Counted from the first letter of the stretch, positions 20,395 to 64,000 are shown. The stretch: DNA of 64,000 nt from a bacterium (GCA_024278215.1 JAJRTR010000174.1:23489-87488); one strand, 5' to 3'. The notes: generated from the letters alone by a model not told the origin. Made by a program: numbers and translations.

Positions 20395-20412
20395 CTTGTC
20401 CTCGCTTCCTAT

Positions 20413-20596
20413 AGAGAGCCAATTGCAAAATTTCGATTCGGCTGCGGTCGGCTGCAATTGTCCATAGCCGCGTTGTCGGCACAAAATCATCCTCAACGTA
20501 CTCGGCGAGTTCGCCTGCGGGGGATTTTGCACCTCCGCCTTGCTTCTGAAAAATTTCGTTCGGCCTCGCTACGAACATAATTTTGCAATTGGCTCT
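20413..20596 (-). repeat. MITE-like repeat family 1, full copy in inverted orientation
   Basis: The reverse complement aligns end to end with 14868-15047 and 45760-45940, including both terminal inverted repeats. Confidence 0.7.
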
Positions 20597-48369: not shown

Positions 48370-50268
48370 ATGTGCGGAATCACAGGAGCGCTGACTTTTA
48401 AAAACAGCGCTTTCGAAATAACGGAAGAATACATAACGGCAATGCGCGACACGATGATACATCGCGGCCCCGACGGCGCGGGCACATGGGTGTCGGGCGA
48501 CAGGTCTGTCGGGCTCGGACACAGGCGGCTCTCGATCATCGACCTATCGGAATCCGCCGCGCAGCCGATGTGCAGCCACGACGAATCCGTGCAACTTGTG
48601 TACAACGGCGAAATATATAATCACGAGGAAATACGCAGGGAACTCGATGCGATTCGTCCGCGCAAATGGAAAACCCACCACTCGGACACCGAGGTAATTA
48701 TCCACGCTTACGAAGAATGGGGTGTCGACTGCCTCGAAAAGTTTCGTGGCATGTTCGCCTTCGCCCTGTGGGACACGCGACTCGGTCGCCTGTGGCTCGT
48801 CAGGGACAGGATCGGCATCAAACCCCTCTACTACAGCATCCATCACGGCAGGATCACCTTCGCATCCGAGATAAAAGCACTGCTCGAAGACCCCGATCAG
48901 AAAAGGGTTCTCGACGAGCGCAGTTTCTTTCATTTCCTCTCTATGATCTTCTCTCCCGCGCCTGATTCGCTTTTCGAAGGGATAAATAAGATTCCCGGCG
49001 GCTGCTGGCTGATGGTGGACAGAAACGGCAAATCGGAACTCAGACGATACTGGGACGTGCTCGAAAGAACGACACCGCTGACGGATGCGAGCGAAGATGA
49101 AATCGCCGAAATGATTATCGAGACACTTCGCGAGGCCGTGCAGCTGAGAAAGGTAAGCGACGTGCCTGTCGGTGTGTTCCTTTCGGGCGGAATCGATTCG
49201 AGCACCAACACAGCCCTGTTTTCCGAAGGCGCGCGCGAGCCGGTAAAAACATTCACTATCGGCTACGACACGGATTACGGCTCATACAAAAACGAAATAC
49301 ATTACGCGAAGATGATGGCCGAATACGGAGGCGCGATTTATCACGAGAAACTTCTTAATATCGATTACCTCATTGATTTCCTGCCTCAGATGGTTCACCT
49401 CCAGGACGAACCGATTGCAGACCCCGTATGCGTCCCAGTCTATTATGTATCGAAGCTCGCGCGGGACAACGGCGTCATCGTCTGCCAGGTGGGCGAAGGC
49501 GCGGACGAACTGTTTTTCGGCTACGGCCACTGGAAACACCTTCTGCAATTGCAACAGTGGGACAACCTGCCCGTGCCGCGTTTTATGAAAAAAATGGGGC
49601 TCGCGGCCTTGCGTTCCATCGGCAAAGAGGACAATCTGCCGTTCGAGTGGCTGCGGCGCGGCTCGCTCGGACAGCCTGTCTTCTGGGGCGGCACAGACTA
49701 TTTCACCGACTACCAGAAACGGAAACTTCTATCAGATCGCCTCAATAAAAACTTTTCAGACATTACCACCTGGGATGTCATGCGTCCCCTGCGACAGCGG
49801 TTTATCGAGAAAGACTGGGAAAAATCGGACATGAACTGGATGTCTTTCATCGACCTTCACCAGCGATTGCCCGAACTGCTCCTTATGCGCGTCGATAAAA
49901 TGAGCATGGGCGTAAGCCTCGAAACTCGCGTGCCTTTTCTCGATCATAAATTCGTCGAACTCGCCTTCAGCATCCCGCAGTCTCTCAAACTGAAGAACGG
50001 CACACTGAAATATATGCTGAAAAAATCAGTCCGCGGCGTGATACCCGACGAACTGATCGACAGACCCAAACAGGGCTTCGGCGTTCCTCTTCACGAATGG
50101 TTTTTCGACAAACTCGGCGACAGGGTCAAAAATGAAATCAAATACTTTTGTGAACAGACCGACCTGCTGGACAAACAATATGTCGACTCTCTTTTCGATT
50201 CACAGAGGTTCACGGACCTGTGGTTTGTTTTCAATTTCGCGCTCTGGTGGAAAGAATTTTTGGAATGA
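48370..50268 (+). CDS. asnB: Asparagine synthase (glutamine-hydrolysing)
   Basis: 'MCGITG' Ntn nucleophile, 'HRGPDG', 'RRLSIIDL', PP-loop 'VGVFLSGGIDSS'. Confidence 0.9.
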   Translation: MCGITGALTFKNSAFEITEEYITAMRDTMIHRGPDGAGTWVSGDRSVGLGHRRLSIIDLSESAAQPMCSHDESVQLVYNGEIYNHEEIRRELDAIRPRKWKTHHSDTEVIIHAYEEWGVDCLEKFRGMFAFALWDTRLGRLWLVRDRIGIKPLYYSIHHGRITFASEIKALLEDPDQKRVLDERSFFHFLSMIFSPAPDSLFEGINKIPGGCWLMVDRNGKSELRRYWDVLERTTPLTDASEDEIAEMIIETLREAVQLRKVSDVPVGVFLSGGIDSSTNTALFSEGAREPVKTFTIGYDTDYGSYKNEIHYAKMMAEYGGAIYHEKLLNIDYLIDFLPQMVHLQDEPIADPVCVPVYYVSKLARDNGVIVCQVGEGADELFFGYGHWKHLLQLQQWDNLPVPRFMKKMGLAALRSIGKEDNLPFEWLRRGSLGQPVFWGGTDYFTDYQKRKLLSDRLNKNFSDITTWDVMRPLRQRFIEKDWEKSDMNWMSFIDLHQRLPELLLMRVDKMSMGVSLETRVPFLDHKFVELAFSIPQSLKLKNGTLKYMLKKSVRGVIPDELIDRPKQGFGVPLHEWFFDKLGDRVKNEIKYFCEQTDLLDKQYVDSLFDSQRFTDLWFVFNFALWWKEFLE

Positions 50269-50322
50269 CGACGGGCTCCACGCACCTTTCGCACATTGTC
50301 CGGCCTGTTCCAGTTGGAATGA

Positions 50323-51945
50323 TTGACTTTGAATAGAAAAAAACAGTTCATCCTCGACCTCGATGATGTCGGAGACCGCGCCGCAGCCCCTGCCGGTTCC
50401 ACATACTACGATATTTATTCGCTCAGAGAAATACTAAGCCCCCGCGAACTCCTGAAACATATATTCAGATACTCTGAATCGACTGTCCTTGTCTACATCA
50501 ACGATTCCTTCCGTCGCCCTCTGTTCGTTTCCGTTCTGCTGCGTCTCATGAGCAGGGGCAGGTGTTTTTCTCTCGATTGCAACGGCCATAGAAAGAACAT
50601 TACATTTTTCAACATCATTGGCTTTGCTTCAAAGTTCGCTATTGATTATTTGCGCAGTAAAAAAGTTGTCCGCAATGCAGAAAACGATGAGCGGGAGATA
50701 AAATATAAATATGCTAGCATTGCCAATAAGCAATTACGTATAGACATGTCCGCGTCACCCGTTTATATGAGAACCGACCTTAAACTCGGACTCACCGCGG
50801 GCGGTTCCGTAGGCCACATCGCCGGTGTGTTGAACAATCTCGACTGTTTCTGCGCAACACCCATATTCATTACTTCGGATAATATACCCACAGTTCGAGA
50901 CGACATCGAAAAGCATATTGTAGATGCCGGGCCGGATTTCCGCGACTTCACCGAAGTGCAGTTCCTTCACTATTCAGCAATATTCTTCAATCGTTCACTC
51001 GAAATATTGAGCGGCGCAAAACCATCATTTATATACCAGAGATACAGTCTCGGCAATATGTCGGGAATAATGCTTGCGCGGCATTTCGGGGTTCCGCTCG
51101 CACTCGAATTCAACGGCTCGGAAGTATGGGTGAGCCGTAACTGGGGCAAGCCGGTGAAATATGGAGACCTGCTCGAAAGGATCGAGTCGACCGTCAACCT
51201 TGCTGCCGATGTCGTTGTTGTTGTCAGCAGGCCGCTGAAGGAACAACTTGTCGCGGCGGGCGTCGAGGCTGGGAAGATACTTGTCAATCCCAACGGAGTC
51301 GATCCTGCGAAGTATTCACCCGGCATCGACGGCTCGAAAATAAGGAATAAATACAGGCTCGAAGGAAAAACCGTTATTGGATTTATCGGTACTTTCGGGA
51401 TGTGGCACGGCGCGGAGGTTCTCGCGGAAGCATTCGGAAAACTTCTAGCGAAACGACCCGAACTGCGTCATAAAACAAGTCTCCTTATGATAGGCGACGG
51501 CGTGATGATGAAGCAGGTTCGCGAAAACCTGAATAAATATGATGTGATGAAATATGCAACGCTAACCGGCATTGTGCCGCAGAGCGAAGGACCTGAACAC
51601 CTTGCCGCCGCAGACATCCTTGCGTCGCCTCATGTGCCTAACCCGGACGGATCGCCTTTCTTCGGTTCGCCGACAAAGCTTTTCGAGTATATGGCGATGG
51701 GCAAAGGGATAGTCGCTTCCGATCTGGCGCAAATCGGCGAGATACTCGACGACAACCACACCGCTGTACTTGTCGAGCCGGGCAACTCCGACGATTTCAT
51801 GCACGGACTTGAAGTTTTACTCGACGATAAAAACAAGAGAGAATCGCTCGGCCATGAAGCTCGCAGGGTAGTTGTCGAAAAATATACATGGAAAGAACAC
51901 ACTCGCAGGATAATCGAAAAACTGAAGGAAAGATGCGGTGCGTGA
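50323..51945 (+). CDS. Glycosyltransferase (GT4-like C-terminal domain) with an uncharacterised N-terminal half
   Basis: 'GKILVNPNGVD', 'FIGTFGMWHG', 'ASDLAQIGEILDD'. TTG start in the track. Confidence 0.7.
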   Translation: MTLNRKKQFILDLDDVGDRAAAPAGSTYYDIYSLREILSPRELLKHIFRYSESTVLVYINDSFRRPLFVSVLLRLMSRGRCFSLDCNGHRKNITFFNIIGFASKFAIDYLRSKKVVRNAENDEREIKYKYASIANKQLRIDMSASPVYMRTDLKLGLTAGGSVGHIAGVLNNLDCFCATPIFITSDNIPTVRDDIEKHIVDAGPDFRDFTEVQFLHYSAIFFNRSLEILSGAKPSFIYQRYSLGNMSGIMLARHFGVPLALEFNGSEVWVSRNWGKPVKYGDLLERIESTVNLAADVVVVVSRPLKEQLVAAGVEAGKILVNPNGVDPAKYSPGIDGSKIRNKYRLEGKTVIGFIGTFGMWHGAEVLAEAFGKLLAKRPELRHKTSLLMIGDGVMMKQVRENLNKYDVMKYATLTGIVPQSEGPEHLAAADILASPHVPNPDGSPFFGSPTKLFEYMAMGKGIVASDLAQIGEILDDNHTAVLVEPGNSDDFMHGLEVLLDDKNKRESLGHEARRVVVEKYTWKEHTRRIIEKLKERCGA

Positions 51946-51968
51946 CTGCCGCGTGATAATTTTCTGCT

Positions 51969-54296
51969 ATGGGAATCACATCTTATGTGAAAAAAGCGTT
52001 TTCGATGCCGCCCGGCATGTTGTTCAGGAAGGCGGCGGCACGTGTGCTTCCCGGCTGGAACCAATTCAAAAGGAAACGTCATGATCTAAGGCATACTACA
52101 TATATATGCGAAACTCCATTTAAGAATAATTCGTTTGATCTTAACCTGCCGGACATAACAATATCCGCCGAACAATTGGTGCCGCATTCGGAATGGATCG
52201 CGGGAACAACGGAAAATTATCTGGCCCATCGTTTCGACCTTCTCGGCTCGGGCTGGACGTGCGTCGCGCACGGGATACGCTGCCGGGGCTTCGAGGGCTC
52301 ACGCTATGACAGCGGCTGCGCGGTCGACACCAAAACAGGCGACAGCCGCTTCCGCGACAGAATCAACAAATCCAATTCGGCTGAATCTCATAGAATATGG
52401 TCGCTTATCGGCAATGATTACGATCACATAGATTGGCATATCGATTTCAAGTCCGGCCGGCGCTGGAGCGAAGCCGCCTGGTACCGGAATATCTGGTACG
52501 GGCACAAGCGAGGCGTCGATGTGAAAGTGCCCTGGGAACTCGCCCGCATGCAGCACCTGCCGCATCTCGCTTATGCTTTCATTCTCGCCGCCGGCGGCAC
52601 AGACGGATTTGATGAACCGGCGCGGTACGTGCATGAGTTCCGCAATCAGGTTCTTGATTTCGTTGCCGGCAATCCGCCCCGCTTCGGCGTCAACTGGACA
52701 TGCACAATGGACGTTGCGATACGTGTCTCTAACTGGATCATGGCACGCGCTTTATTCGAATCCGGCGGAGCGGACTTCGACAGCGATTTCATTTCCGTTT
52801 TCAACAGGAGCGTCTATGAGCACGGTGTTCACATAATCAACAATCTCGAATGGAACCCCGAACTGCGCGGGAATCATTATCTGTCGGACATCGCCGGGCT
52901 GATATTCGTTTCAGCAGCTCTGCCGTGTGTGCCGGAGACAAACGCATGGCTCGCGTTCGGAGTGCAGGAACTGATCTCGGAAACAGAGAAACAATTTTTC
53001 AGGGATGGCGGCAATTTCGAATGCTCGACCGCCTACCACAGGCTGTCCGCAGAACTCGTCGCGTATTCCGCGGCTGTGATTCTTGGACTGCCGCCTGAAA
53101 AAATCGACGCGCTCTGCGAATACGACAATAAATTGCACAAAACCTTACCCCCGCTGAAACCCGCGCCGATTAAACTGTATGACATTCCGGGCCTGAACAT
53201 GACCAGCCCCCTGCCCCGCCGGTTCCTCGACAGAATGCACCGTATGGCGACATTCAGCATCGACATTACCAAACCGTGCGGCCACATTCCACAGTTCGGA
53301 GACAACGACAGCGGCAGGTTTTTCAAGTTTAACCCGATATACAATAAAATGGCGGTTTCAGATGCTCGCGGCCTGTACGGCAATCTCTGTGATTACAAAG
53401 AGCTCGACGATGATGCCGTTTATTGGGACGAAAACCATATCGATCACCGCAGTACAGTTTCAGCGATAAACGGTTTTTTCCTCGACCGCCGTTTTTCTGC
53501 CTTTACAGGCAGCAACATACTGGATGAAATCGTAATCAGAGAGCTTGCGGGTTTTTCACCTGGACAGTCACTTCCGAGAGCGGACATTTGCAATCGTCAT
53601 ATCATCGCGACTTCGGAACATACGCCGGAAACATGTAACAACATACTGGAATCATTGCCCGACAACAAAAAAAACACGATAGAGATTGAGTTGCCCGGCG
53701 TTTCGAGCGCGGGAGAAATCGTTCTGACGCAGTACCCTGAATTCGGACTGTATATCTTCAGGAATGAGGTGATGTTTCTCGCCGTCCGATGCGGCCCCAT
53801 CGGACAGAACGGGTTCGGCGGCCACGCCCATAACGACCAGCTTGCCATCGAGTTACAGCTTGCCGGAAAGGACATTATTGTCGATCCGGGCACATACATT
53901 TATACGCCGGTCCCCGAGATAAGAAATAAGTACAGGTCGGTGCGCGCACATTTCGCCCCCAGGCCCGTCAATGCAAAAGAACCCGGCAGGTTGGACCTCG
54001 GACTGTTCCGGCTCGGCGATGAAGCGAAAGCCGAATGTCTCTACGCAGACGACCACACATTCGCAGGCAGGCACTTCGGCTTCGGCAGCCCTGTCTATCG
54101 CATGATAAAAATCACACAGGAAAAACTGATAATCACCGACTGGATCGAATCGGATGACGACACGGAGGCAATCGAGTTGCTTACAGTAGACAAACACGCC
54201 TCGGCAGTGAATGAATTGGGTTTTTCACCTGCCTATGGCGTTAAATATACGAAAACAAATGCCTCTTCGCTATTTGGTGTGGATAGAGAAATGTAG
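51969..54296 (+). CDS. Heparinase II/III-like family protein
   Basis: 'WNPELRGNHYLSDIAGLIFVSAALP', 'GGHAHNDQLAIELQLAG'. Typical neighbour of AsnB and the bi-domain oxidoreductase in polysaccharide loci. Confidence 0.65.
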   Translation: MGITSYVKKAFSMPPGMLFRKAAARVLPGWNQFKRKRHDLRHTTYICETPFKNNSFDLNLPDITISAEQLVPHSEWIAGTTENYLAHRFDLLGSGWTCVAHGIRCRGFEGSRYDSGCAVDTKTGDSRFRDRINKSNSAESHRIWSLIGNDYDHIDWHIDFKSGRRWSEAAWYRNIWYGHKRGVDVKVPWELARMQHLPHLAYAFILAAGGTDGFDEPARYVHEFRNQVLDFVAGNPPRFGVNWTCTMDVAIRVSNWIMARALFESGGADFDSDFISVFNRSVYEHGVHIINNLEWNPELRGNHYLSDIAGLIFVSAALPCVPETNAWLAFGVQELISETEKQFFRDGGNFECSTAYHRLSAELVAYSAAVILGLPPEKIDALCEYDNKLHKTLPPLKPAPIKLYDIPGLNMTSPLPRRFLDRMHRMATFSIDITKPCGHIPQFGDNDSGRFFKFNPIYNKMAVSDARGLYGNLCDYKELDDDAVYWDENHIDHRSTVSAINGFFLDRRFSAFTGSNILDEIVIRELAGFSPGQSLPRADICNRHIIATSEHTPETCNNILESLPDNKKNTIEIELPGVSSAGEIVLTQYPEFGLYIFRNEVMFLAVRCGPIGQNGFGGHAHNDQLAIELQLAGKDIIVDPGTYIYTPVPEIRNKYRSVRAHFAPRPVNAKEPGRLDLGLFRLGDEAKAECLYADDHTFAGRHFGFGSPVYRMIKITQEKLIITDWIESDDDTEAIELLTVDKHASAVNELGFSPAYGVKYTKTNASSLFGVDREM

Positions 54297-54366
54297 TGTG
54301 CCGGAGGATAACCAAATGTTTGCAAAGGCCTATGAAGAGTTTTTCGTGCTCACTGAAGTTTTTTAT

Positions 54367-54428
54367 GGTGAATGCGGAGCGTTCAGTCCCTGCGTTCCGG
54401 GTCGGAGCCTTGGAACGATGAAAGCTGT
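54367..54428 (+). repeat. Repeat family 2 fragment (mosaic of the middle blocks of copies 1 and 2)
   Basis: 'gcggagcgttcagtccctgcgttccgggtcgga' is identical to 28826-28858. 'ttggaacgatgaaagct' resembles 14641-14657. Confidence 0.5.
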
Positions 54429-54506
54429 TTTACCCACACGATTCAGCGAAGAGCCAAATGAATAAATCGACTTAATGATTTTCACGCATGTTTGCGGTGC
54501 GGCACA

Positions 54507-54842
54507 TTACTTATTACTGCCGTAGACGACGATATGTGCTTTTTCGAGCGTGACAAGGCCTCCCGGAACCATTTCTTTAACAATTGGAATAAACTCCTGT
54601 ATTTTTTCCGTCTTATCGACTATCTCGACAACAAAAGGCAAATCTTCCGACAGACGGAGTATGCTGGTTGTACTGATGTGATTATTTGCACCAAAGCCCA
54701 TGCGCCCCCGGATCGCTGTTGCACCCGCAAGGCCATGTTCCCTTGCTTTTTTCACAATGGCTTCGTACAGTGGACGGCCCTTCCATTTCTGAGTCTCGCC
54801 TACAAATATTCTCAGCAGTTGCGCGTCATCTCTGGCATCCAT
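54507..54842 (-). CDS. DUF190 (P-II-like) protein, the usual crcB partner
   Basis: 111 aa; 'RIFVGE...KGRPLYEAIVKKAREHGLAGATAIRGRMGFG'. Confidence 0.7.
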   Translation of the reverse strand: MDARDDAQLLRIFVGETQKWKGRPLYEAIVKKAREHGLAGATAIRGRMGFGANNHISTTSILRLSEDLPFVVEIVDKTEKIQEFIPIVKEMVPGGLVTLEKAHIVVYGSNK

Positions 54843-54869
54843 TGGAAGCCTCCATTTAATAAGGTAATT

Positions 54870-54900
54870 AGAACCGATTGCAAAATCATGTTCGTCGCAG
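54870..54900 (+). repeat. MITE-like repeat family 1, 31-bp terminal fragment
   Basis: 'agaaccgattgcaaaatcatgttcgtcgcag' matches the left end of the full copies. Confidence 0.45.
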
Positions 54901-55003
54901 TTGAATATCTTATCATTAAGTATAACAAGCTACAGTAAAACAAGAGCTATCGAAAGAAAAAACTGGTGATCGTGACAAAAAGCAGGCTATCGAACAAACC
55001 GCA

Positions 55004-55384
55004 TCAGAAATGCAATGATTTCATCATAATCCATCCGGCTGCAACAGCGAAAATGCCGACAATAAGATTAGTGCCGATATTTGCAATCGCAGAAACATAC
55101 TGAGATTCGCGCAACAATGCATAAGTCTCGAAACCGAATGTCGAGAAAGTTGTGAACGAGCCAAGAATCCCCGTAAATATAAAAAGACGCGCTTCCGTTT
55201 CTATCATACGCCTGTCCTCTACCAGAAACATAAGCGTACCGATAATGAAGCAGCCAAGCACATTCACCAGTAGTGTACCGTAAGGGAACGAACCGTTCAG
55301 GAATCTGTGCGGCACACCGGAAATAACATACCTTGCAATTGCCCCGATAAATCCACCGAATCCTATAAGCAAAAATTTTTGCAT
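55004..55384 (-). CDS. crcB: Fluoride ion channel CrcB/Fluc
   Basis: 126 aa, 4 TM. 'GFGGFIGAIARY', 'TLLVNVLGCFIIG', 'GILGSFTTFSTF' (conserved F/T and the Fluc TxxF motifs). Confidence 0.85.
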   Translation of the reverse strand: MQKFLLIGFGGFIGAIARYVISGVPHRFLNGSFPYGTLLVNVLGCFIIGTLMFLVEDRRMIETEARLFIFTGILGSFTTFSTFGFETYALLRESQYVSAIANIGTNLIVGIFAVAAGWIMMKSLHF

Positions 55385-55863
55385 CCGGCATTATAGCAAT
55401 TTATCACGTCTAAAAACAAGTCGGAAATGACAAGAGTATTCAAAACAATTAATGGGAGCATAAACATTCACTTCCTGTTTTCACGTATCTGTTCACAGGC
55501 AACTGTTTGCAATGGAACATCTGAAATTCCGGGGAGTGCAACGACTGTGTGGTGCAACGGTGAAGAAGTCGCATTTCGCAAAAACTGACGTTTTTGCATT
55601 CCAGAATTTGCTGATAGTACAGTTAACCCCAATACCGTTTACTTAAGAAGGTATGTGTATCAATATTCGCGATAAATACAGGCTTTTTACGCATCATTTT
55701 TGCTAAAGCGAACGGTATTGCCGTTAACCCGCATATTTCACCAATCCGGGCTAAACTCAAAATCCGTATATTGTCATTCTGAGAAAAGCAAATAATTTCC
55801 AGGTGTTTAACGCAATATTTCCAATGCCACCCCTTCGTGAACAGTTACATTTTTCACAGACTC

Positions 55864-57495
55864 TCAATCCGGCAATTCCCCGTTGTTGCCAGCGTTCAGT
55901 ATTGTGGTGATATTCATACGGAAACCGCCCTGCGAGGAACCTGCGTACAGGAACTGCCCGTCTGATGAAAAGTTCAGTCCCCTTATACGCCTTCCGATGT
56001 AACATTTCGTGATTATCCGCCACGAATGGGCATCCAGAAAATAGAGATGCCCGTCGGCATAACCCGCGACTATTATGGTGTCTCCGTCCGGCGTTACAGC
56101 TATGTTTCTGACACCCGGCGCTATGAACTTGCGTCTCTCCTCACGGAACTTATCGTCCATTTCCGACAATGTTCCGGCCCACATATTGCTCACAAGAATA
56201 CTGCCCGGCTCGATGCCCCTTTGCAGAAAAACGTCCAGCCGCTGATATACCGGAATGTGTATATCCTGCCTGTTTTCAACTACTATCTCACCGGCATCGC
56301 CGCCATCTTCGTAACGAAAACGCACCATACTGTAGTCGGGCTCGGTGACGGCAACGAAATAATCATTTTCAGTATAATATATCCACTCATCAGGACCGGT
56401 TATCCGGGCAATCGCCTTTCCTCCGGTCCCGGGATAAACGAAAAACGTATGGGATTCGTTCAATGCGTAATAGCGACTTCCGTCACGCGCGGCCTCGATC
56501 CTTGTCGCCTTGAAATCGACAGGTATCGGCGGGCGCGTCGCCTCAGATATATCGTCCGCCCGAATGAAACGGATAGCGCTTGCACCGGAAAAATCCCCTA
56601 TTGCGATTTCGTTCCGTTCGCAATCGAGAATCATATTGTCGGAACTCTCGCCTATCACAGTTGAACTTTCCGCCCGGCCCGCCGCCGGTTCGTATTTTAT
56701 CAGTCCGCTTTTTCTCCCCCCCTGCATTCCGATATAGATGATATCGCCCCCACAGCCTTCCATCACAAACATTATCTGTTCGCCAATGATTTTACCCACC
56801 GGCTGCTCTCTGTCATAAGTGAACAGTACATCCACTCCAGGCTGGGACTCGATAATCCGCATGTCCGCGTCTCCGTTTATGTTATAAAACCTGAATGCAA
56901 CAAATATTGTAAAAAATGTCATCGCGGCCGATGCAGGCACCCAGGCGGGTACCCTGTATTTGTGCTTTCCGGGTAGTACTTTCGCTATAAGCAAAAGAGC
57001 GCAAAGCACAGCTATTGCAAGCAACAACGACATAAACGGGAAATAAATGAGCCACAGAGCCAAAGCAGGCAGACAGACCGCTATCCTTATCCAAAAAGGA
57101 ACTTTACCGCCGATGCACAGTCCAAAAACTGCGGTTCCGCAGGCTATTGCAACCCAAGGATACATCGGGTTCACGAGCCGAATTTCACCGCAGAGTACCA
57201 GGCCCCACAACGGCATCAGAACCAGTGCCGGGCTCCACAACAAAAATACAGGAACACGCGGCTCGCACCTTTTTTTTATCAGGTATACCCACCTCGCAAG
57301 ATGCAGCAGCAGCAACAGAACTACCCACCCTGCAAGCAGATCGAAGAATACAATATAATTGATAGCGGGTGGCACGGCCGCGAGCCACAGCGCGAGACAC
57401 ACTGCCTCAAGCAATAATCTTCTGCCGATCTGCACCACTTTTTTCATTACCGGTAAGCTTCTTTCTTTTTTGGGCGAAACACATCTCTCCAGCAT
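55864..57495 (-). CDS. Membrane-anchored hypothetical protein with C-terminal beta-propeller-like domain
   Basis: The N-terminal ~230 aa hold 6-7 TM helices. The C-terminal ~300 aa have repeated D-G-x / PDG beta-strand blades. Confidence 0.45.
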   Translation of the reverse strand: MLERCVSPKKERSLPVMKKVVQIGRRLLLEAVCLALWLAAVPPAINYIVFFDLLAGWVVLLLLLHLARWVYLIKKRCEPRVPVFLLWSPALVLMPLWGLVLCGEIRLVNPMYPWVAIACGTAVFGLCIGGKVPFWIRIAVCLPALALWLIYFPFMSLLLAIAVLCALLLIAKVLPGKHKYRVPAWVPASAAMTFFTIFVAFRFYNINGDADMRIIESQPGVDVLFTYDREQPVGKIIGEQIMFVMEGCGGDIIYIGMQGGRKSGLIKYEPAAGRAESSTVIGESSDNMILDCERNEIAIGDFSGASAIRFIRADDISEATRPPIPVDFKATRIEAARDGSRYYALNESHTFFVYPGTGGKAIARITGPDEWIYYTENDYFVAVTEPDYSMVRFRYEDGGDAGEIVVENRQDIHIPVYQRLDVFLQRGIEPGSILVSNMWAGTLSEMDDKFREERRKFIAPGVRNIAVTPDGDTIIVAGYADGHLYFLDAHSWRIITKCYIGRRIRGLNFSSDGQFLYAGSSQGGFRMNITTILNAGNNGELPD

Positions 57496-57787: not shown

Positions 57788-60760
57788 ATGAATACAATTT
57801 TTCCCGCTAATGTGTCTGCGCACTTACTGCTGCAGGCCATGGCAGCTAATTACAATCTCAGGTATCGATACAGGAAGTATCTCAAGAGCACAAACGGCTG
57901 GATCGACTTCTCGGTGGGTTTCAGAACACGCGACGACACCATCGTTCAGACTATTAGCTTCAAAGACGGTCGTGCCCGTGTGACAGGCCGAATCATAAAA
58001 AATGTGGATGCGGTGATAGTGTTCGAGGACGATTCCGCTTTCATGAATATGCTCAGCAATTCTTCCGAAGAAGTATTGACTATGATGCTTAAAAACCGTA
58101 TCCGCATAAAAGGCAATCATTTATGTGTGCTGCTGTTCTATTTTCTTATGTCCCTTCTTATGAATGAGTTCAAGGGCAAGGGGACGGGTAAGGAGACGGC
58201 CCGCAACGGCAACACGCCGCCTCGCAAAAAAAGTGCATTGCCGAAGCACGTACCGGAGCGCCCCAGTATTCGACGCAAGGCTACCCTCACTATCGAGCGC
58301 ACCGGTGAGGGGGTTAAGTATCTCGACGATCCATACCTGTCACAATACTGCCTTGAAGACTTTCCGCGCCTGGGGCGTTTCCTTTCCATTCACTTCGACA
58401 CGATGCCCGAGGTTTGCCCGGAGCGTGCAAAGTTGATCACGGACTGGTATCTGAAAAACGGGTTCGAGAAGAAGCGCAACGGGCAACCGTGGATTCCCGA
58501 GACGCGCCAGGCTTACGCGTTCAAGCACCTGATGGAAAACAAGAAACCCATCATTCGCGAAGATGACCTTATCGCCGGAACCACCACGACTATGCCGATA
58601 GGGGCGGTAATGTATCCCGATTCGCAGGGTATGTTTATATGGCCCGAACTGTACACTATGTCCAGCCGTGAGATGAACCCGTGCCGCGTTTCACGCAGAA
58701 CGGCAAAGGTCCTGCACCACCATGTGTTTCCGTTCTGGATGCGGCGCAACATCAAGCTGTGGGTAGGCGAAAAATACAATAACCCGCTGTGCGAACAAAT
58801 CGGTGACCACCTTGTGGTGTACATACTGTCAAAAAGTGTGGCCCTGTCGCACACGATTGCGGATTTCCCAACACTTCTGGCACTCGGCACCAGCGGCATC
58901 CGCCGTAAAATCAGCGAGGAATTGCTGCGCGATACGGCGGCGGACAAGCAAAAACGATATACCCTGGAAGCAATGTCTATATGTCTCGACGGACTGGAAT
59001 CGTATACAAGAAACCTCGCCGGGCACGCGCGTAAACTTGCGCGCAAGGCCGTAAGCACGCAACGACGCGGGGAACTCGAGCGCCTCGCTGAAATCTGCGA
59101 CAAAGTTGCTGTTGATCCGCCCGATACCCTTGACGAGGCGATAAATCTCATCTGGATCGCCTGGGTGGCTCTGCACATGGAAAACACCAACGTGGGGCTG
59201 TCGCTGGGTCGTATGGACCAGTGGCTGCAACCGTTCTTCGAGTCCGATATAGAAAAGTGCACAACACAGGAACAACGCGAGAAATATATCAAGCACGCCA
59301 TACGGCTTGTGTGCTGCTTCTTCCTGAGATGTACGGATCATATACCTATGTCGCCGGATGTGGGCAAACATGTGGTGGGCGGTGCGCCTGCCAACCAGGC
59401 CGTTACTCTGGGCGGTGTCACGCCGGACGGCAAGGATGCCGTCAACGACATGACCTATATTTTTCTTAAGGCAACCGAGATGCTCGGCATCCGCGACCCC
59501 AACGTGAACGCGCGATACAGCCCGGAGAAGAATTCCGACACGTATCTCAAGCGCCTGTGCGAAGTGAATCTGATCACCACCGCTTCACCGTCCATGCACA
59601 ATGACAGCGCGGTGATAACATCGCTTGAAGAGTTCGACTATCCTATTGAAGATGTACGCGACTGGTCGTCCACAGGCTGTGTCGAGCCCACGCTTTCGGG
59701 CAAACACATCGGGCACACCGGCTGCATGATGATGAACATGGTTGCCGCGCTGGAGATGGCACTCAACGACGGCACCCACCCGCTGATGAAGTGGGACCTC
59801 GGCCCGAAAACAGGGAGTATCGACAACGGCGCTTTCCCCACTTTCGAGGACTTCTTCGAAGCGTTTAAAATACAGTTCGAGTTCCTGATTGCAAACGCCG
59901 TGCAGTACAACAACTACCTTGGCGAATCGCACAGCGTGATGCGCCCTACTCCGCTGCTTTCGGCCATGATCCGCGACTGCATCCGCAACGGAAAAGACCT
60001 GACCAAAGGCGGCGCACGCTATAATTCATCAGGCATAGCCTGCATCGGACTGATCGACGTTACGGACTCGCTTATCGCTATAAAAAAATTCGTTTACGAC
60101 GACAAACTCATTACGTTCGCGGAACTCAAGGACGCAGTTGATTCCAATTTCAAAAAACACAGTATGCTGTACGCCATGATCCAGAATAAATCCGTCCGGT
60201 TCGGATCGGGCAACGCCGAGGCGCTCGAAATGGCCAACAGGATAACGAAAGTCACGCACGACGCGTTCGCGTCGCACAGGAACTTCCGGGGAGGTATCTA
60301 CACTACCGGGTTCTGGTCGATGTCCAACCATGTGGCGTTCGGAATGCTCACAGGGGCGCTTCCTTCGGGGCGCCTTGCTGGTGCTCCCTTCACACCCGGC
60401 CTCACGCCGCAGTCGCACGCTTCCAACAACCTGCTCGACAATATCAAGGACGTTGCCGGGCTGGACCCGCACAACATGAACAACAACATCGCCTTTAATA
60501 TAAAGGTATTTCCCGCTGCCGGAGAAAGCCATGAGAAATCTGTGGACGATATATATTCTTACGTGAAGACATACTTCGATCTGGGCGGTATGCAGATACA
60601 GCTCAACGTGATCAACACCGAGACGCTGCGCGATGCGATGGCCCGCCCTGAGAATTACCAGAACCTGCTTGTGCGCATTTCGGGGTATAACGCTTACTTC
60701 ACTACACTTACAAAGGAGCTTCAGCTCGAACTCATCCATCGGGCCGAGTTCGGCATCTGA
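57788..60760 (+). CDS. Glycyl radical enzyme, 1,2-eliminase/lyase class (GCVEP Cys loop), with N-terminal SCP2-like extension
   Basis: C-terminal glycine-radical motif 'VRISGYNAYFTTL'. Cys loop 'SSTGCVEPTLSG' (TGT at 59668-59670). PFL-like fold signatures throughout. The first ~130 aa resemble an SCP2 lipid-binding fold. Confidence 0.85.
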   Translation: MNTIFPANVSAHLLLQAMAANYNLRYRYRKYLKSTNGWIDFSVGFRTRDDTIVQTISFKDGRARVTGRIIKNVDAVIVFEDDSAFMNMLSNSSEEVLTMMLKNRIRIKGNHLCVLLFYFLMSLLMNEFKGKGTGKETARNGNTPPRKKSALPKHVPERPSIRRKATLTIERTGEGVKYLDDPYLSQYCLEDFPRLGRFLSIHFDTMPEVCPERAKLITDWYLKNGFEKKRNGQPWIPETRQAYAFKHLMENKKPIIREDDLIAGTTTTMPIGAVMYPDSQGMFIWPELYTMSSREMNPCRVSRRTAKVLHHHVFPFWMRRNIKLWVGEKYNNPLCEQIGDHLVVYILSKSVALSHTIADFPTLLALGTSGIRRKISEELLRDTAADKQKRYTLEAMSICLDGLESYTRNLAGHARKLARKAVSTQRRGELERLAEICDKVAVDPPDTLDEAINLIWIAWVALHMENTNVGLSLGRMDQWLQPFFESDIEKCTTQEQREKYIKHAIRLVCCFFLRCTDHIPMSPDVGKHVVGGAPANQAVTLGGVTPDGKDAVNDMTYIFLKATEMLGIRDPNVNARYSPEKNSDTYLKRLCEVNLITTASPSMHNDSAVITSLEEFDYPIEDVRDWSSTGCVEPTLSGKHIGHTGCMMMNMVAALEMALNDGTHPLMKWDLGPKTGSIDNGAFPTFEDFFEAFKIQFEFLIANAVQYNNYLGESHSVMRPTPLLSAMIRDCIRNGKDLTKGGARYNSSGIACIGLIDVTDSLIAIKKFVYDDKLITFAELKDAVDSNFKKHSMLYAMIQNKSVRFGSGNAEALEMANRITKVTHDAFASHRNFRGGIYTTGFWSMSNHVAFGMLTGALPSGRLAGAPFTPGLTPQSHASNNLLDNIKDVAGLDPHNMNNNIAFNIKVFPAAGESHEKSVDDIYSYVKTYFDLGGMQIQLNVINTETLRDAMARPENYQNLLVRISGYNAYFTTLTKELQLELIHRAEFGI

Positions 60761-60762
60761 CT

Positions 60763-61665
60763 ATGGCCGGCGATCCGCTTATATTCGAGATAAAGAGAAA
60801 TTCACTTGACGACGGACCCGGCATCCGCACGGTAATATTCTTCAAGGGCTGCCCGCTGTCCTGCTCATGGTGCCAGAACCCGGAGGGCCGCTGTCCGCGT
60901 GTCGAGATTTCCTTTGATCGGAAAAAGTGCATTGATTGTAAGACCTGCCTTAACATCTGCAAAAACAGCGCGCTGGACCGCCATCCGCTTTATTTCATCG
61001 AACGCGAGAAGTGTGACCTGTGCTTCGAATGCGCGGACAACTGCCCGACCGAAGCGCTGGCACGTGTGGGCAGGCATATTTCGGTACAAGAAATCATGGA
61101 CGCCGTTGTTCGCGACATTCCGTTCTTCAACACTTCGGGCGGTGGCGTCACTCTGTCCGGCGGCGAGGCAACTCTATACATGCCGTTCGCCTCGAAACTC
61201 CTCCAGGCTCTCAAGCAGCAGGACATCAGCACACTGCTCGAAACCTGCGGCCATTTCGATTTCCAGGCCTTCGACGAGCTTATCTACCCATGGCTGGACC
61301 AGATTTATTACGATTTGAAGTTTTTCGATTCCGGCTTCCACCGGAAATACTGCGGGGTCCCAAACGATCAGATTCTCGAAAACTTCGAGAAGCTCTACGC
61401 TCGCTCGCTTGACGGCGGCGTGCCGATTCTGCCGCGCATTCCGCTCGTTCCGAGACTGACTGCCGTGAAGACGAATCTACGGGCTCTGGCCGCTTTCCTC
61501 CGCAAGAACAAGGCTCGGCAGGTTTCCCTGCTCGAATACAATCCACTGTGGCAGGATAAAATGATTACCGTTGGAATGACCAGTGATTACGACAAGACCG
61601 ACTGGATGACAAAAAAGGAAGTGAAAGTATGCCGGTCTTTCTTTAAAAAATTCGACATCATATAA
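60763..61665 (+). CDS. Glycyl-radical-enzyme activating enzyme (radical SAM) with two extra ferredoxin-type clusters
   Basis: Radical-SAM 'GCPLSCSWCQNP' (CX3CX2C). Ferredoxin motifs 'CIDCKTCLNICK' and 'CDLCFECADNCP'. SAM-binding 'LSGGEAT'. Starts 3 nt after the glycyl radical enzyme. Confidence 0.9.
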   Translation: MAGDPLIFEIKRNSLDDGPGIRTVIFFKGCPLSCSWCQNPEGRCPRVEISFDRKKCIDCKTCLNICKNSALDRHPLYFIEREKCDLCFECADNCPTEALARVGRHISVQEIMDAVVRDIPFFNTSGGGVTLSGGEATLYMPFASKLLQALKQQDISTLLETCGHFDFQAFDELIYPWLDQIYYDLKFFDSGFHRKYCGVPNDQILENFEKLYARSLDGGVPILPRIPLVPRLTAVKTNLRALAAFLRKNKARQVSLLEYNPLWQDKMITVGMTSDYDKTDWMTKKEVKVCRSFFKKFDII

Positions 61666-61753
61666 TCAATCGCGTCGAGCCCATATATGTGCGCCTCAAC
61701 CACGGGCTTCTTCGCATTCAGGAACAGGATTACAGGAAAGAGGATATCGACTC

Positions 61754-64000
61754 ATGCAGAACAGAAAGTGGAACTACGAGGAATATTGCAGGCCGGATTT
61801 TGTGAAGATGCTTCGGGCGCTGAGGCTCGATGTGCATTTCACGAGAGCCGCCGGCGATTACCTTTATTATACCGACGATAACGGGCAGGAGATTGCTATA
61901 CTCGACCTTGCGGGCGGCATGGGCTCAACGATACTTGGACACAACAATCCGGCAGTAAACAAAACACTTGCCCGCTGCCTCGAGTCCGGTGTGCCGATGC
62001 ACGCCCAGGGCACGGTACGCGAGTCTGCCGGCAGGCTGGCCGCCCGCCTCAACCAATTATATCCCGGCGCACAGAAACGCATTTGTATCTTTACCAACAC
62101 TGGCACCGAAGCTGTCGAAACCGCACTCAAACACGCCGAGATGAATCGCATGAAACGCCTGCTTGCAATCGGTAAGGACCTCAAAGCGCACCACAAAAAG
62201 ATGCGGGAGTACTTCCGCGACAATACAGGCTACACCCTGCCGGAAAAATATCGCGACAGGGGCTTCGACTCGCTGCTTAACGACATTCTCATGCAGGGGC
62301 TGCTGCTCGAGCAACTCCCGCCGGTCGTTATATCCACAAAAGGCGCGTTCCACGGCAAGACCACCTCGGCGCTGAGCGTGACAGGCAACAAGATGTACCG
62401 CGAGCCTTTCGCCCGTATGAGCGGCATCCGGACAAAGTTCATCGATTTCAACGATGCCGCTCAACTCGAATCAACTCTGGAAAATAATTATTTCGAAATA
62501 AACAAGATCGTTGTCGAAGACGGCATTGTCAGGCTTGTCCCCGATAAGCATCTGAATATTACGGCATTCATCACGGAACCGATTCAGGGCGAGGGCGGTA
62601 TACATGTCGCCACACAGGAATTTATCGGGCAGATCGCCGCTCTTCGCGACAGACACGGGTTCGAATGGATCGTGGACGAAATACAGTCGGGCATGGGCCG
62701 CACTGGTTCTTTCTTCGCTATGGAACGATACGGAATCGACCCGGACACGGTGGACTATGTGCTGCTTTCCAAGTCGCTCGGCGGAGCCGTATCCAAACTC
62801 AGCGTCGCTATGATCCGCGAGCCGATACACGACGGCAATTTCGGGATGCTTCACACGTCTACCTTCGGCGAGGACGCTTTATCATGCGAAGTGGCCCTGA
62901 CTGTTCTGGATGAACTTACCGGTAATGATAAAGCGCTGATACGCAACTGCTCCGACATGGGCGACTACCTGATGGCCGGACTGCGCGAACTGAAGGAAAA
63001 ACACCCGGGCGTTGTGTCGGGTGTGCGCGGAGCGGGTCTCATGGCTGGTGTCGAGTTCAATGTGCGACGCAACGGCAAGTCGATCTTCTTCGCCGAACTC
63101 GCGGCCCAGGGCGGACTGGGAATGCTCATTGCCGGATACCTGTTCCACGAGCACCGCATACGCACTCAACCACCCCTCAACTCCATCATCACTAAAAAAC
63201 CTTCGAACATACTCCGCATCGAGCCTTCCGCACTTATCGACAAAAAAGACATCGACCGTGTGCTCTTCGCCCTCGACCGCGCATGTGAGATCGTCGAAAA
63301 ATCAAATGCTTACGAACTTACAAAATTCGTGATCGACAAGGAAACACCCGGCGAATATGTAGATATTAAGGACTTCTTCGAACCTGTGGAACCGTCCGCG
63401 GAGCAGGCGGACTTCGAGAACGTGCGCCAGATGGGTTTCCAGTTCCACCCGCTGGACGTACACCAGGTGATGGAAGGCTTCGACAAATCGCTGTGCGAGT
63501 TCAGCCGCGAGCCGGACCCCGCAACCGGGCAATCGGAGCGCGACCTGTACTGGGACCGCCTCGTGCCCATTCTGGGCGCATTCGTGCTCAAGGTAATCAA
63601 TCTGAAGTCGCCCCGCACCGGCGACAGAGTGCGTGCCACACTGTTCGGACTGCCCTACACAACACGTCAGATGCTGGACCTGCATAAAAACAATCCCCAA
63701 TTCCTCATCGACCGCATCCAGGAAGGTGCCGAACGCGCCGCCGCTATGGGCGCGCGCATATTCGGGCTCGGGGCTTTCAACTCCATCGTCACTCACGACG
63801 GCATGGACCTCGACGACACCAACATCCGCATCACCAGCGGCAACTCATACACCGCCGCACTGATATGGCAAAGTGTCCTCAAGGTTGCCGATTACGCCGA
63901 ACTCGATCTGGAAAAATCAACCGCTGCAATCGTCGGCGCCGGCGGCAACATCGGCAGCGTCACAGCCAGTCTTCTGTCCGAAGACATCTCGCACTTTATC
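61754..64000 (+). CDS. Fusion protein: class-III (PLP) aminotransferase plus acyl-ACP-reductase-like NAD(P) domain. 3' end outside window.
   Basis: Uninterrupted frame from ATG 61754 (SD AGGAAAGAGGA) to the window edge; it is absent from the ORF track because it has no stop. Aminotransferase motifs 'KGAFHGKTTSALSVTG', 'EPIQGEGG', 'DEIQSGMGRTGSFFA', 'LSKSLGG'. C-terminal 'GLGAFNSIV', 'TSGNSYTAALIWQSV', 'AAIVGAGGNIGSVTASLL' parallel cyanobacterial acyl-ACP reductase. Confidence 0.7.
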   Translation, partial: MQNRKWNYEEYCRPDFVKMLRALRLDVHFTRAAGDYLYYTDDNGQEIAILDLAGGMGSTILGHNNPAVNKTLARCLESGVPMHAQGTVRESAGRLAARLNQLYPGAQKRICIFTNTGTEAVETALKHAEMNRMKRLLAIGKDLKAHHKKMREYFRDNTGYTLPEKYRDRGFDSLLNDILMQGLLLEQLPPVVISTKGAFHGKTTSALSVTGNKMYREPFARMSGIRTKFIDFNDAAQLESTLENNYFEINKIVVEDGIVRLVPDKHLNITAFITEPIQGEGGIHVATQEFIGQIAALRDRHGFEWIVDEIQSGMGRTGSFFAMERYGIDPDTVDYVLLSKSLGGAVSKLSVAMIREPIHDGNFGMLHTSTFGEDALSCEVALTVLDELTGNDKALIRNCSDMGDYLMAGLRELKEKHPGVVSGVRGAGLMAGVEFNVRRNGKSIFFAELAAQGGLGMLIAGYLFHEHRIRTQPPLNSIITKKPSNILRIEPSALIDKKDIDRVLFALDRACEIVEKSNAYELTKFVIDKETPGEYVDIKDFFEPVEPSAEQADFENVRQMGFQFHPLDVHQVMEGFDKSLCEFSREPDPATGQSERDLYWDRLVPILGAFVLKVINLKSPRTGDRVRATLFGLPYTTRQMLDLHKNNPQFLIDRIQEGAERAAAMGARIFGLGAFNSIVTHDGMDLDDTNIRITSGNSYTAALIWQSVLKVADYAELDLEKSTAAIVGAGGNIGSVTASLLSEDISHFI

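Follow-up and report, generated by a model that had tools for sequence, protein, structure and literature searches.

A widespread family of glycyl radical enzymes with a predicted N-terminal SCP2 domain, and a divergent clade linked to a TamH-like transaminase/thioester reductase

Three co-directional open reading frames (ORFs) fill positions 57788-64000 of the DNA analysed here, a 64,000-nt bacterial sequence (GCA_024278215.1 JAJRTR010000174.1:23489-87488) that is called the window throughout. ORF calling placed a glycyl radical enzyme (GRE) first, its activating enzyme (activase) second, and a fusion of a transaminase with a thioester reductase third (Table 1). All three were found where a first-pass annotation of the same DNA had put them. 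That annotation gave gaps of 3 nt and 88 nt between the genes; the second was confirmed, and the first is actually 2 nt (60761-60762). Neither intergenic region of the operon contained a terminator-like site or an Rfam element, and riboswitch, terminator and promoter scans across the operon gave no signal above chance. The cassette is read from its layout as a real operon, with the three genes predicted to be co-transcribed.

Table 1. Features of the operon and their positions in the window
Feature	Position	Strand	Basis
SCP2-fused GRE, 990 aa, stop included	57788..60760	+	ORF; Pfam PFL-like 537 bits, Gly_radical 84 bits
Predicted SCP2-fold domain, N-terminal, residues ~6-125	57803..58162	+	Pfam SCP2 in relatives, AlphaFold (AF2), Foldseek
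Linker, charged, variable, predicted disordered, residues ~126-175	58163..58312	+	Predicted local distance difference test (pLDDT); low family identity
GRE catalytic core, residues 176-990	58313..60757	+	Family conservation from G175/V176; solved GREs align from ~193
His355, invariant	58850..58852	+	Alignment column of propanediol dehydratase His and CutC Asp
Pocket loop, residues 527-536, with invariant G532	59366..59395	+	Clade-specific substitutions (clade KHVVGGAPAN, family NYLFGGSSSD); HypD alignment
Cys loop G630-C631-V632-E633-P634, Cys-x-Glu (CXE) motif	59675..59689	+	Identical to GCVEP of glycerol dehydratase (GD; C433/E435)
Glycyl radical motif R963-I-S-G966-Y967	60674..60688	+	Pfam Gly_radical spans residues 868-972
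GRE-activating radical S-adenosylmethionine (SAM) enzyme, 300 aa	60763..61665	+	TIGR02494 277.5 bits; cysteine motifs
Intergenic spacer, 88 nt	61666..61753	.	Terminator/Rfam scans empty
TamH/PigE-type transaminase-thioester reductase fusion, first 749 of 1020 codons	61754..64000	+	Window edge cuts gene
Class-III pyridoxal phosphate (PLP) transaminase domain, residues ~27-475, PLP Lys340, DEIQSG at 308	61832..63178	+	Aminotran_3 231 bits
Thioester reductase domain like acyl-acyl carrier protein (ACP) reductase (AAR), N-terminal part, residues ~560-749, GAGGNIG at 728	63431..64000	+	Profile matches

The catalytic part of the first protein is that of a typical GRE. Pfam assigned PFL-like (PF02901) to residues 205-852 and Gly_radical (PF01228) to the region behind it, and by Pfam and NCBIfam together the GRE core spans residues ~203-988. 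A motif search located the two motifs that had been noticed earlier, RISGY (963-967) and GCVEP (630-634). C631-V-E633 is invariant in 34 family members, and C631 aligns with Cys433 of GD. The CXE motif defines the GRE 1,2-eliminases and a newer isomerase class; its Glu hydrogen-bonds the substrate hydroxyl, and His164 of GD protonates the leaving hydroxyl (PMC13450708). The earlier placement of the enzyme with the eliminase-type GREs, and not with pyruvate formate-lyase, was borne out by the invariant C631-V-E633 and by a Cys loop that reads as in GD. His355 ('ALSHTIADF') is also invariant and shares a column with the active-site His of propanediol dehydratase (PD; 'GVGHVTVQY') and a His of PFL2 from A. 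fulgidus (AfPFL2). Because of the alignment with PD, His355 is the probable equivalent of GD His164. The same column is occupied by an Asp in CutC ('GGGDTCPGY').

The residues expected to line the substrate pocket follow another pattern. After the Cys loop, GD and PDB 9RCO read '...EGWHD', and the 'WHD447' segment of GD corresponds to H640-I-G-H643-T644-(N/G) in the SCP2-GRE family. The column of GD Asp447, which we take to be part of the diol-binding pocket, holds Asn in the family and Gly (position 645) in the clade to which the window GRE belongs. The HypD Ser334 position is Phe in GD, PD and CutC (PMC7077986). In our alignments Ser334 of HypD falls on the invariant Gly532, Asp339 on Gln537 and Tyr450 on Met648, and the pocket position held by Phe333 in GD and Phe338 in PD is Gly532 in the window GRE. 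The pocket thus read differs from those of all characterised eliminases, and at the mapped positions it looks roomier and less polar. As far as residues can be compared, the catalytic machinery is canonical and of the eliminase/isomerase type, and the pocket lining appears to be the family's own.

GD and PD (PDB 1R8W and 5I2A) share with the window GRE the PFL-like barrel and glycyl radical domain, the GCVEP loop, a His in the PD active-site column and an activase with two extra ferredoxin-type clusters. The similarity is distant (357-360 bits over ~790 residues), and the window GRE differs in carrying an extension of ~175 aa and Gly532 for the pocket Phe. The best-scoring solved relative is AfPFL2 (PDB 2F3O; 390 bits), which is likewise of the CXE type with a His in the equivalent column ('ISHVAVNY'). 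It has 776 aa, has no SCP2 domain, permits no functional transfer and was still termed 'a GRE of unknown function' in a June 2026 review of the superfamily (PMC13450708).

None of the NCBIfam equivalog models accepts the window GRE. It scored 445 bits with the HypD model (NF043068; cut-off 1100), 381 bits with the CutC model (TIGR04394; cut-off 1050), 373 and 370 bits with the HpfG and HpsG models (cut-off 1000) and 526 bits with the PFL2-3 subfamily model (cut-off 678). Several known identities were tried and rejected, and the enzyme fell into no characterised clade with a conserved pocket. For GD or PD, the His is present, but Gly532 replaces Phe, the Asp447 column holds Asn or Gly and the PFL2-3 score falls below its cut-off. 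HypD (trans-4-hydroxy-L-proline dehydratase) was rejected on its score and on the loss of Ser334, Asp339 and Tyr450, and CutC (choline trimethylamine-lyase) on its score and on His355 in the column of the Asp that binds the trimethylammonium group, presumably Asp216. The sulfonate anchor of the C-S lyases, R189, Q193 and R678 in IslA, is conserved only in the IseG/IslA cluster (PMC6453916). No sulfonate-anchoring Arg or Gln was seen in residues ~347-356 (LSKSVALSHT) or ~839-841 (TTG) of the window GRE, stretches that were mapped by alignment offset and not residue by residue. A C-S lyase identity (IslA, IseG, HpsG) was discarded on this Arg/Gln/Arg anchor and on the HpsG and HpfG scores. An X-succinate synthase, suggested by the taxonomic distribution, was set aside on the CXE motif, the weak MasD/BSS matches (among the weakest in the PDB) and the small-subunit genes, of which none were seen. 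The N-terminus was also considered as a microcompartment-targeting sequence and this was rejected, as no shell genes were seen in any locus examined.

All solved GREs align to the window GRE only from residue ~193. The extension before the core totals ~175 aa and consists of a folded part (residues ~6-125) and a charged, disordered linker (~126-175). The folded part had been read in the first-pass annotation as an SCP2 sterol/lipid-carrier fold of ~130 aa, one not known from any characterised member. A Pfam scan of the whole protein gave no match at E <0.1 within residues 1-200, and the window copy scanned alone against Pfam SCP2 (PF02036) gave E 0.072 (13.9 bits; gathering cut-off 21.3). When 25 family N-termini were scanned singly, 16 matched SCP2 at E <=10 (best E 5.7e-6), and no other Pfam family recurred among them. 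In the AlphaFold model, which was built on an alignment of the family N-termini, block means of pLDDT lie between 76 and 94 (mostly ~90) for residues 11-130. The model predicts the topology a-a-b-b-b-b-a-a-b-a (a, helix; b, strand) with a five-stranded sheet; residues 132-159 are predicted to be disordered (pLDDT <50). A profile of the N-terminus returned only noise against PDB sequences, and a fold search was needed. The top 46 Foldseek matches in the PDB were exclusively SCP2 domains (probability 0.95-1.00), with target-normalised template modelling scores up to ~0.7 (maximum 0.72). Among the best were UbiJ-SCP2, AF1534 of A. fulgidus, SCP2 proper, and the SCP2 domains at the C-termini of two alkylsulfatases, SdsA1 and Pisa1. 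Because the model is confident, the fold matches are SCP2 only and Pfam SCP2 matches recur in relatives, the extension is predicted to be an SCP2 fold, in agreement with the earlier reading. A lack of any SCP2 similarity in profile scans, which would have refuted that reading, was not what the family N-termini showed.

The SCP2 part is conserved across the family at a median identity of ~39-46%, compared with ~16-27% for the linker and 64-72% for the core. A profile of the N-terminus found 315 matches among 1.84 billion representatives. The strong ones were fragments or full-length members of the SCP2-GRE family, and stand-alone SCP2-looking proteins appeared only among the weak matches. In the alkylsulfatases SdsA1 and Pisa1 the SCP2 fold recruits long alkyl chains, and in UbiJ it recruits polyprenyl quinone intermediates. 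These proteins and UbiT resemble the window GRE in that a five-stranded alpha/beta SCP2 fold is tied to a catalytic unit. They differ from it in that the SCP2 domain of the window protein is N-terminal, is followed by a long disordered linker and is attached to a radical enzyme. Fusions to SCP2, sterol-carrier or lipid-binding domains go unmentioned in the June 2026 review, consistent with the earlier remark that such a domain is not known from any characterised GRE, and no description of a GRE with SCP2 was found in the searchable literature. The combination of SCP2 and a radical enzyme is undescribed there.

The first-pass annotation called this GRE an orphan. That description did not hold, as the SCP2-GRE architecture defines a large, tightly conserved and widespread family. 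A protein search found at least 120 homologue clusters, all of 973-1025 aa with 56-81% identity and at least 97% query coverage; one protein is identical to the window GRE (P0001). A scan of one genome per GTDB species found at least 573 candidates confirmed by tblastn. The full SCP2-linker-GRE architecture was checked in the best 80 of these, which align from residue <=25 through ~990 at >=54% identity; the other candidates may include GREs without SCP2, since the search patterns derive from the C-terminal core. In all, no fewer than 120 protein clusters and 80 species-level genomes show the architecture, and up to 573 genomes are candidates for it. The hosts belong to Desulfobacterota, Actinomycetota, Chloroflexota, Spirochaetota and other phyla. 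Their metagenome-assembled genomes (MAGs) are labelled Smithella, Syntrophaceae, Desulfomonilia, Desulfatibacillum, Desulfosudis oleivorans, Desulforapulum autotrophicum, Spirochaetota, Anoxymicrobiaceae/Geothermincolia, Ca. Solincola and Chloroflexota, among others. By sequence comparison, the SCP2-GREs are a large, widespread and as yet uncharacterised family.

The activase begins 2 nt past the GRE stop codon. It exceeds the TIGR02494 cut-off of 174 bits, matches Pfam Radical_SAM and several 4Fe-4S families, and contains a CX3CX2C motif at residues 30-37 and CX2CX2CX3C ferredoxin motifs at 56-66 and 84-94. It had been described as ferredoxin-rich. The ferredoxin motifs are indeed there, but they are not a peculiarity; TIGR02494 gives them as the normal architecture of the class, and the activase is judged ordinary on its motifs.

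The third ORF is open from its start to the window end, 749 codons without a stop. All 749 residues are identical to the start of P0122, a protein of 1020 aa that we took to be encoded on the source contig, and the ORF is 82% identical, without gaps, to a 1015-aa orthologue. Because the ORF matches residues 1-749 of P0122 in full, the fusion is one uninterrupted gene, intact at 1020 aa in the source assembly. This agrees with the single polypeptide that had been proposed, a class-III aminotransferase joined to an AAR-like reductase, and the alternative of two genes split by a stop or frameshift fails against P0122. The N-terminal part matches Aminotran_3 (PF00202), with the PLP Lys in SK340SLGG and the DEIQSG motif. 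The C-terminal part matches the N-terminal, reductase part of PigE (E 2e-17) and the cyanobacterial acyl-ACP reductase (TIGR04058; E 4.8e-8). The catalytic Cys951 (GCVAE) lies beyond the window edge, in the remainder of P0122, and shares an alignment column with the Cys of PigE and of SeAAR. The Cys and PLP-Lys motifs were present in 25/25 members checked of the transaminase-thioester reductase (TA-TR) subfamily, whose members have ~1015 aa and are 51-86% identical; with generic TamH-like proteins of other phyla the identity is 28-36%, mostly <=34%.

PigE is the best NCBIfam match for both halves of the third ORF, with their order swapped: the transaminase part aligns to ~508-733 of the PigE profile and the C-terminal part to 50-176. 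The PigE equivalog (NF053554) gave 290 bits for the window fragment and 335-359 for full-length orthologues (cut-off 850). PigE of Serratia, which acts in the 2-methyl-3-n-amylpyrrole (MAP) branch of prodigiosin synthesis, is a thioester reductase-transaminase (PMC8341465). TamH of Pseudoalteromonas tunicata, from the synthesis of tambjamine YP1, begins with a PLP transaminase and ends with an AAR-like thioester reductase that depends on NADH; together with TamA, its acyl-ACP partner, it was shown experimentally to convert fatty acids to aldehydes and then to amines, taking C7-C14 aldehydes and not accepting acyl-coenzyme A (CoA) (PMC9594044). The fusion is of a described kind; TamH has the same domain order and PigE the reverse. 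The GxxGxxG motif and catalytic Cys of TamH and PigE are also conserved. The window gene differs from theirs in that it has no pyrrole or tambjamine cluster, belongs to an anaerobe and stands beside a GRE. We assign the third gene, on its profile matches and motifs, as a new member of the TamH/PigE kind. A TA-TR homologue at 51% identity was seen elsewhere inside a flagellin glycosylation/nonulosonic-acid cluster (locus L090, 5474-15658) with FliD, FliS, Maf, two PseB-like epimerase/dehydratases, a DegT aminotransferase, a CMP-transferase and flagellin. Judging from this location, part of the subfamily may supply the amine substituent of a flagellar glycan.

The fusion gene accompanies a single clade of the SCP2-GREs. 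All GRE homologues with at least 76% identity to the window protein (P0002-P0005; locus L008 at 80%) have the activase and then the fusion gene downstream; the trio was seen directly in L001-L004 and L008 and was deduced for P0003/P0121 and P0005/P0124. Among 52 family loci with at least 4.5 kb of downstream sequence, 3 have the fusion, and the window is the fourth case. The operon proposed earlier is real and is specific to this narrow clade. The cassette was found in four unrelated genomic contexts. It is flanked in the window by heparinase-like and polysaccharide genes and a CrcB-like gene, in L001 by redox complex and two-component genes, in L004 by an IS200-like gene, a PlsC-type acyltransferase and GpsA, and in L008 by AlaRS, sigma-70 and TrpD. 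Just over 1 kb downstream of it in two loci lie ORFs of >3200 aa without a Pfam match (L001 18325->22967, L002 18244->22967).

The window clade is a long-branched sister of the remaining family, with 75-85% identity within and 55-60% to the others, which have a median mutual identity of 66%. It has fixed a different residue at 26 positions where the rest of the family is at least 90% conserved, N645G in the GD Asp447 column among them. A dense block of substitutions falls on the pocket loop 527-536 (family GNYLFGGSSSDQ, clade GKHVVGGAPANQ). The loop changes may represent a specificity shift that accompanied acquisition of the partner enzyme.

Neighbouring genes were counted across the family by ORF calling and clustering of 82-85 loci with Pfam/NCBIfam annotation. 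The activase lies within ~400 nt downstream in 45/66 loci with enough sequence, and upstream in others. A TetR regulator was found within 1 kb upstream in 28 of the 70 loci with enough upstream sequence. Counts within 5 kb cover the 41 loci that have 5 kb or more of sequence on each side: aldehyde:ferredoxin oxidoreductase (AOR; 10/41), acyl-CoA/AMP ligase (11/41), classical short-chain dehydrogenase/reductase (SDR; 7/41), extended SDR with weak best matches to the lipid-acting HpnA, OleD and SdmB (6/41), class-III transaminase (7/41) and Exo_endo_phos phosphoesterase (7/41). At least one gene that handles aldehydes, alcohols or amines (AOR, SDR, extended SDR or class-III transaminase) was present in 26/41. 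Single loci contained acyl-CoA dehydrogenases (L006, L088), an MMPL/sterol-sensing-type transporter (L089) and PlsC with GpsA (L004). By annotation, the neighbours fit a carbonyl product of fatty or lipid character, and do not thereby identify the substrate.

Some individual neighbourhoods were also recorded. An Exo_endo_phos gene (sphingomyelinase/phosphatase-type, without an NCBIfam assignment) follows closely on the GRE-activase pair, in the opposite orientation, in 9/85 loci, for example L006/L007 14005-14940, L015 14145-14969 and L004 17963-19015. A Chloroflexota locus (L005 10001-18448) has tandem GRE systems: an SCP2-GRE with its activase, then an 838-aa GRE without SCP2, its activase and a PNPOx-like protein. 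In Ca. Solincola (L089 8434-16363), the SCP2-GRE and activase come after a radical SAM/SPASM protein, and a transporter of 811 aa of the MMPL/Patched/sterol-sensing type is convergent with them. In Actinomycetota (L088 6986-9809; also L012, L013, L039 and L076), a class-III omega-transaminase and a DUF6206 protein lie divergently upstream of the SCP2-GRE, and in L088 desulfoferrodoxin is also upstream. This pairing was considered as an independent parallel to the window cassette and rejected; the co-location is real, but the enzyme is a generic class-III transaminase with 26% identity to the window transaminase domain.

The interpretation we prefer, to which we give an even chance, is that the window GRE is an SCP2-assisted radical 1,2-eliminase that acts on a long-chain hydroxylated substrate, and that in the window clade its aldehyde is shared with the thioester reductase/transaminase. 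The activase would use radical SAM chemistry to place a glycyl radical on Gly966 of the GRE, which would work as a CXE-type 1,2-eliminase/isomerase with Cys631 as the thiyl, Glu633 as the base and His355 as the proton donor. The flexibly tethered SCP2 domain would capture a hydrophobic long-chain substrate and hand it to the catalytic barrel. Abstraction of hydrogen at the carbinol carbon and expulsion of the vicinal hydroxyl or amine would then yield a long-chain aldehyde or ketone. The TamH-type enzyme could work at the same aldehyde node, its reductase turning an acyl thioester into a fatty aldehyde and its PLP domain interconverting aldehyde and primary amine. We favor an arrangement in which GRE-derived and thioester-derived aldehydes would converge on the transaminase to give a long-chain amine. 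In favor of this reading are the intact catalytic residues C631, E633, H355 and G966, which are invariant in the family, the conserved SCP2 domain, the distinct pocket, the aldehyde-, alcohol- and amine-handling neighbors, the TamH precedent and the persistence of the cassette in four contexts. The analysis establishes the gene structure, the domains, the catalytic motifs, the SCP2 fold, the size of the family and the conservation of the cassette. We infer the hydrophobic substrate, the eliminase chemistry, the carbonyl product, and the coupling to the fusion enzyme and its direction.

Several points weigh against this interpretation. The eliminase and isomerase outcomes are indistinguishable from sequence, and several of the pocket mappings rest on pairwise hidden Markov model alignments and numbering offsets. 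A substrate is known for no family member, and AfPFL2, the best PDB match, is itself functionally unassigned. The SCP2 domain could serve membrane association or oligomerisation instead. The pairing of GRE and TA-TR occurs in one narrow clade and could be a chance feature of that lineage; at 51-56% identity, TA-TR homologues have no GRE beside them, one being in the flagellin glycosylation cluster and one standing alone. Finally, no AMP-binding or PP-binding gene that might provide a TamA-type partner adjoins the cassette in the window, L001, L004 or L008.

If the two enzymes are unrelated neighbors, the GRE and activase would do a family-wide job and the TamH-like enzyme would serve a separate pathway, such as glycan or natural-product modification. 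We regard this as somewhat unlikely. The fusion is absent from 49/52 family loci with enough downstream sequence, the homologues without a GRE (one of them among flagellin glycosylation genes) show that the enzyme occurs apart from one, and the spacer before the third gene is 62-178 nt across the clade, compared with 2-3 nt between GRE and activase. However, the trio is adjacent and co-directional in every clade member found despite wholly different flanks, the clade GRE has diverged specifically on the pocket loop, and no terminator-like site precedes the third gene.

Another explanation reverses the pathway and makes the cassette degradative, directed at long-chain amines or amino alcohols. 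The GRE would cleave the C-N bond of a vicinal amino alcohol of lipid character, such as a base of the sphingoid type or an N-(2-hydroxyethyl)alkylamine, the transaminase would deaminate the amine to an aldehyde, and the reductase would run in reverse as an acylating aldehyde dehydrogenase that feeds beta-oxidation. C-N elimination of the CutC type runs on the same CXE machinery, and the loss of polar residues from the clade pocket would fit an altered leaving group. Beta-oxidation genes, acyl-CoA ligase and AOR are common neighbors elsewhere in the family, and a class-III omega-transaminase lies near the GRE in two unrelated lineages, fused in the clade and stand-alone in four Actinomycetota loci. 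Against this, the Actinomycetota enzyme is only 26% identical to the window domain, which makes the association generic, and a His replaces the ammonium-binding Asp of CutC. TamH and PigE run from thioester to amine, and we know of no report of an AAR-type reductase operating oxidatively. The catabolic direction is considered unlikely. The broader suggestion made in the first pass, a pathway for a lipid-like amine or amino alcohol, fits the data and is still a candidate.

It is also conceivable, though rather improbable, that the SCP2 domain does not deliver the substrate and functions in membrane docking, oligomerisation or partner binding, with a true substrate that is small and soluble. Other GREs have non-catalytic N-terminal extensions, such as the long CutC form 9f3w, the linker is long and disordered, and the SCP2 domain of UbiJ also organises a multi-enzyme complex. 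Nevertheless, the domain is kept in 120/120 listed homologues with coverage of at least 97%, the pocket appears enlarged and more hydrophobic at the mapped positions, and the neighboring genes are of lipid, fatty-acid and TetR flavor.

The other route proposed in the first pass makes the GRE an isethionate- or 2,3-dihydroxypropane-1-sulfonate-type C-S lyase that releases sulfite for DsrAB, with the fused domains replacing Tpa and SarD. As in the IslA/IseG-Tpa-SarD system, a CXE-type GRE, an activase, a class-III aminotransferase (which Tpa is) and a reductase occur in a dsr-bearing organism, the C-S lyases also having the CXE motif, and the dsr genes noted earlier on the contig were confirmed as dsrAB. 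We nevertheless consider it highly improbable: the Arg/Gln/Arg anchor is absent in the corresponding stretches, the HpsG and HpfG scores are far below 1000 bits, IslA is among the weaker PDB matches, the reductase is of the AAR/glutamyl-tRNA reductase type and not a SarD-type sulfoacetaldehyde reductase, an SCP2 domain would be senseless for a C2-C3 sulfonate, dsrAB lies ~46 kb away, and the family is abundant in Smithella, Chloroflexota, Actinomycetota and Spirochaetota, several host lineages of which are not known to us as sulfate reducers.

The eliminase interpretation can be extended from the window clade to the whole family. The SCP2-GREs might be the first GRE family to work on lipids or long-chain amphiphiles, splitting off water, an alcohol or an amine from vicinal diols or amino alcohols tethered to a lipid; candidate substrates would be, for example, monoalkyl- or monoacyl-glycerols, long-chain 1,2-diols and sphingoid-type bases. 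We offer this tentatively, as less likely than not, and the idea of a polyethylene glycol or alcohol-ethoxylate lyase is pure speculation. To our knowledge, the substrates of the characterised enzymes of this type are all small polar metabolites (such as glycerol, propanediol, choline, hydroxyproline and sulfonates), and a family bearing a lipid carrier would extend glycyl-radical chemistry to hydrophobic substrates. If true, anaerobes would be able to take apart or remodel ether and amino lipids without oxygen, and in the window clade the re-tuned pocket and TamH-like enzyme would tie this lipid chemistry to fatty amines. The family hosts are anaerobes of sediments, aquifers and digesters, and many of the MAGs are assigned to known hydrocarbon- or fatty-acid-degrading genera. 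Little is understood of how anaerobes degrade long-chain diols, ether lipids and amino lipids, and the SCP2-GRE family is a testable candidate for it. The window clade provides a natural experiment, with a divergent pocket beside a partner enzyme predicted to form fatty amines, and enzymes of the TamH type attract interest in biocatalysis as a means of turning fatty acids into amines.

The remainder of the window contains several other genes of note. Immediately divergent from the GRE, at 54507-57495 (-), are a 543-aa multi-pass membrane protein without a Pfam match, which is its direct neighbor, and a CrcB-like small membrane protein (by eye). Asparagine-synthase-like and glycosyltransferase-like genes (by eye) and a heparinase II/III-like protein (Pfam) lie at 48370-54296 (+). 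None of the upstream genes at 48370-57495 is conserved beside the cassette in related genomes. The dsrAB genes (10213-12521) are separated from the operon by many unrelated genes; the segment 10213-13974 (+) encodes DsrA- and DsrB-like subunits (NIR_SIR and ferredoxin-like half-domains) followed by a CobB/CobQ-type, DsrN-like amidotransferase. A peptidase C25 (gingipain-family) protein at 15148-16950 (+) seems unusual for a dsr-bearing organism. A giant ORF of 3835 aa spans 31064-42571 (+) in a markedly GC-richer stretch (57-59%, compared with ~48-52% elsewhere). Two adjoining HGD-D proteins (2-hydroxyacyl-CoA dehydratase/benzoyl-CoA-reductase-like) are encoded at 18075-20532 (-), possibly with a neighboring 293-aa ORF at 20636-21517 (-). 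The HGD-D family includes bacterial plasmalogen/ether-lipid synthases, which may matter given the lipid theme.

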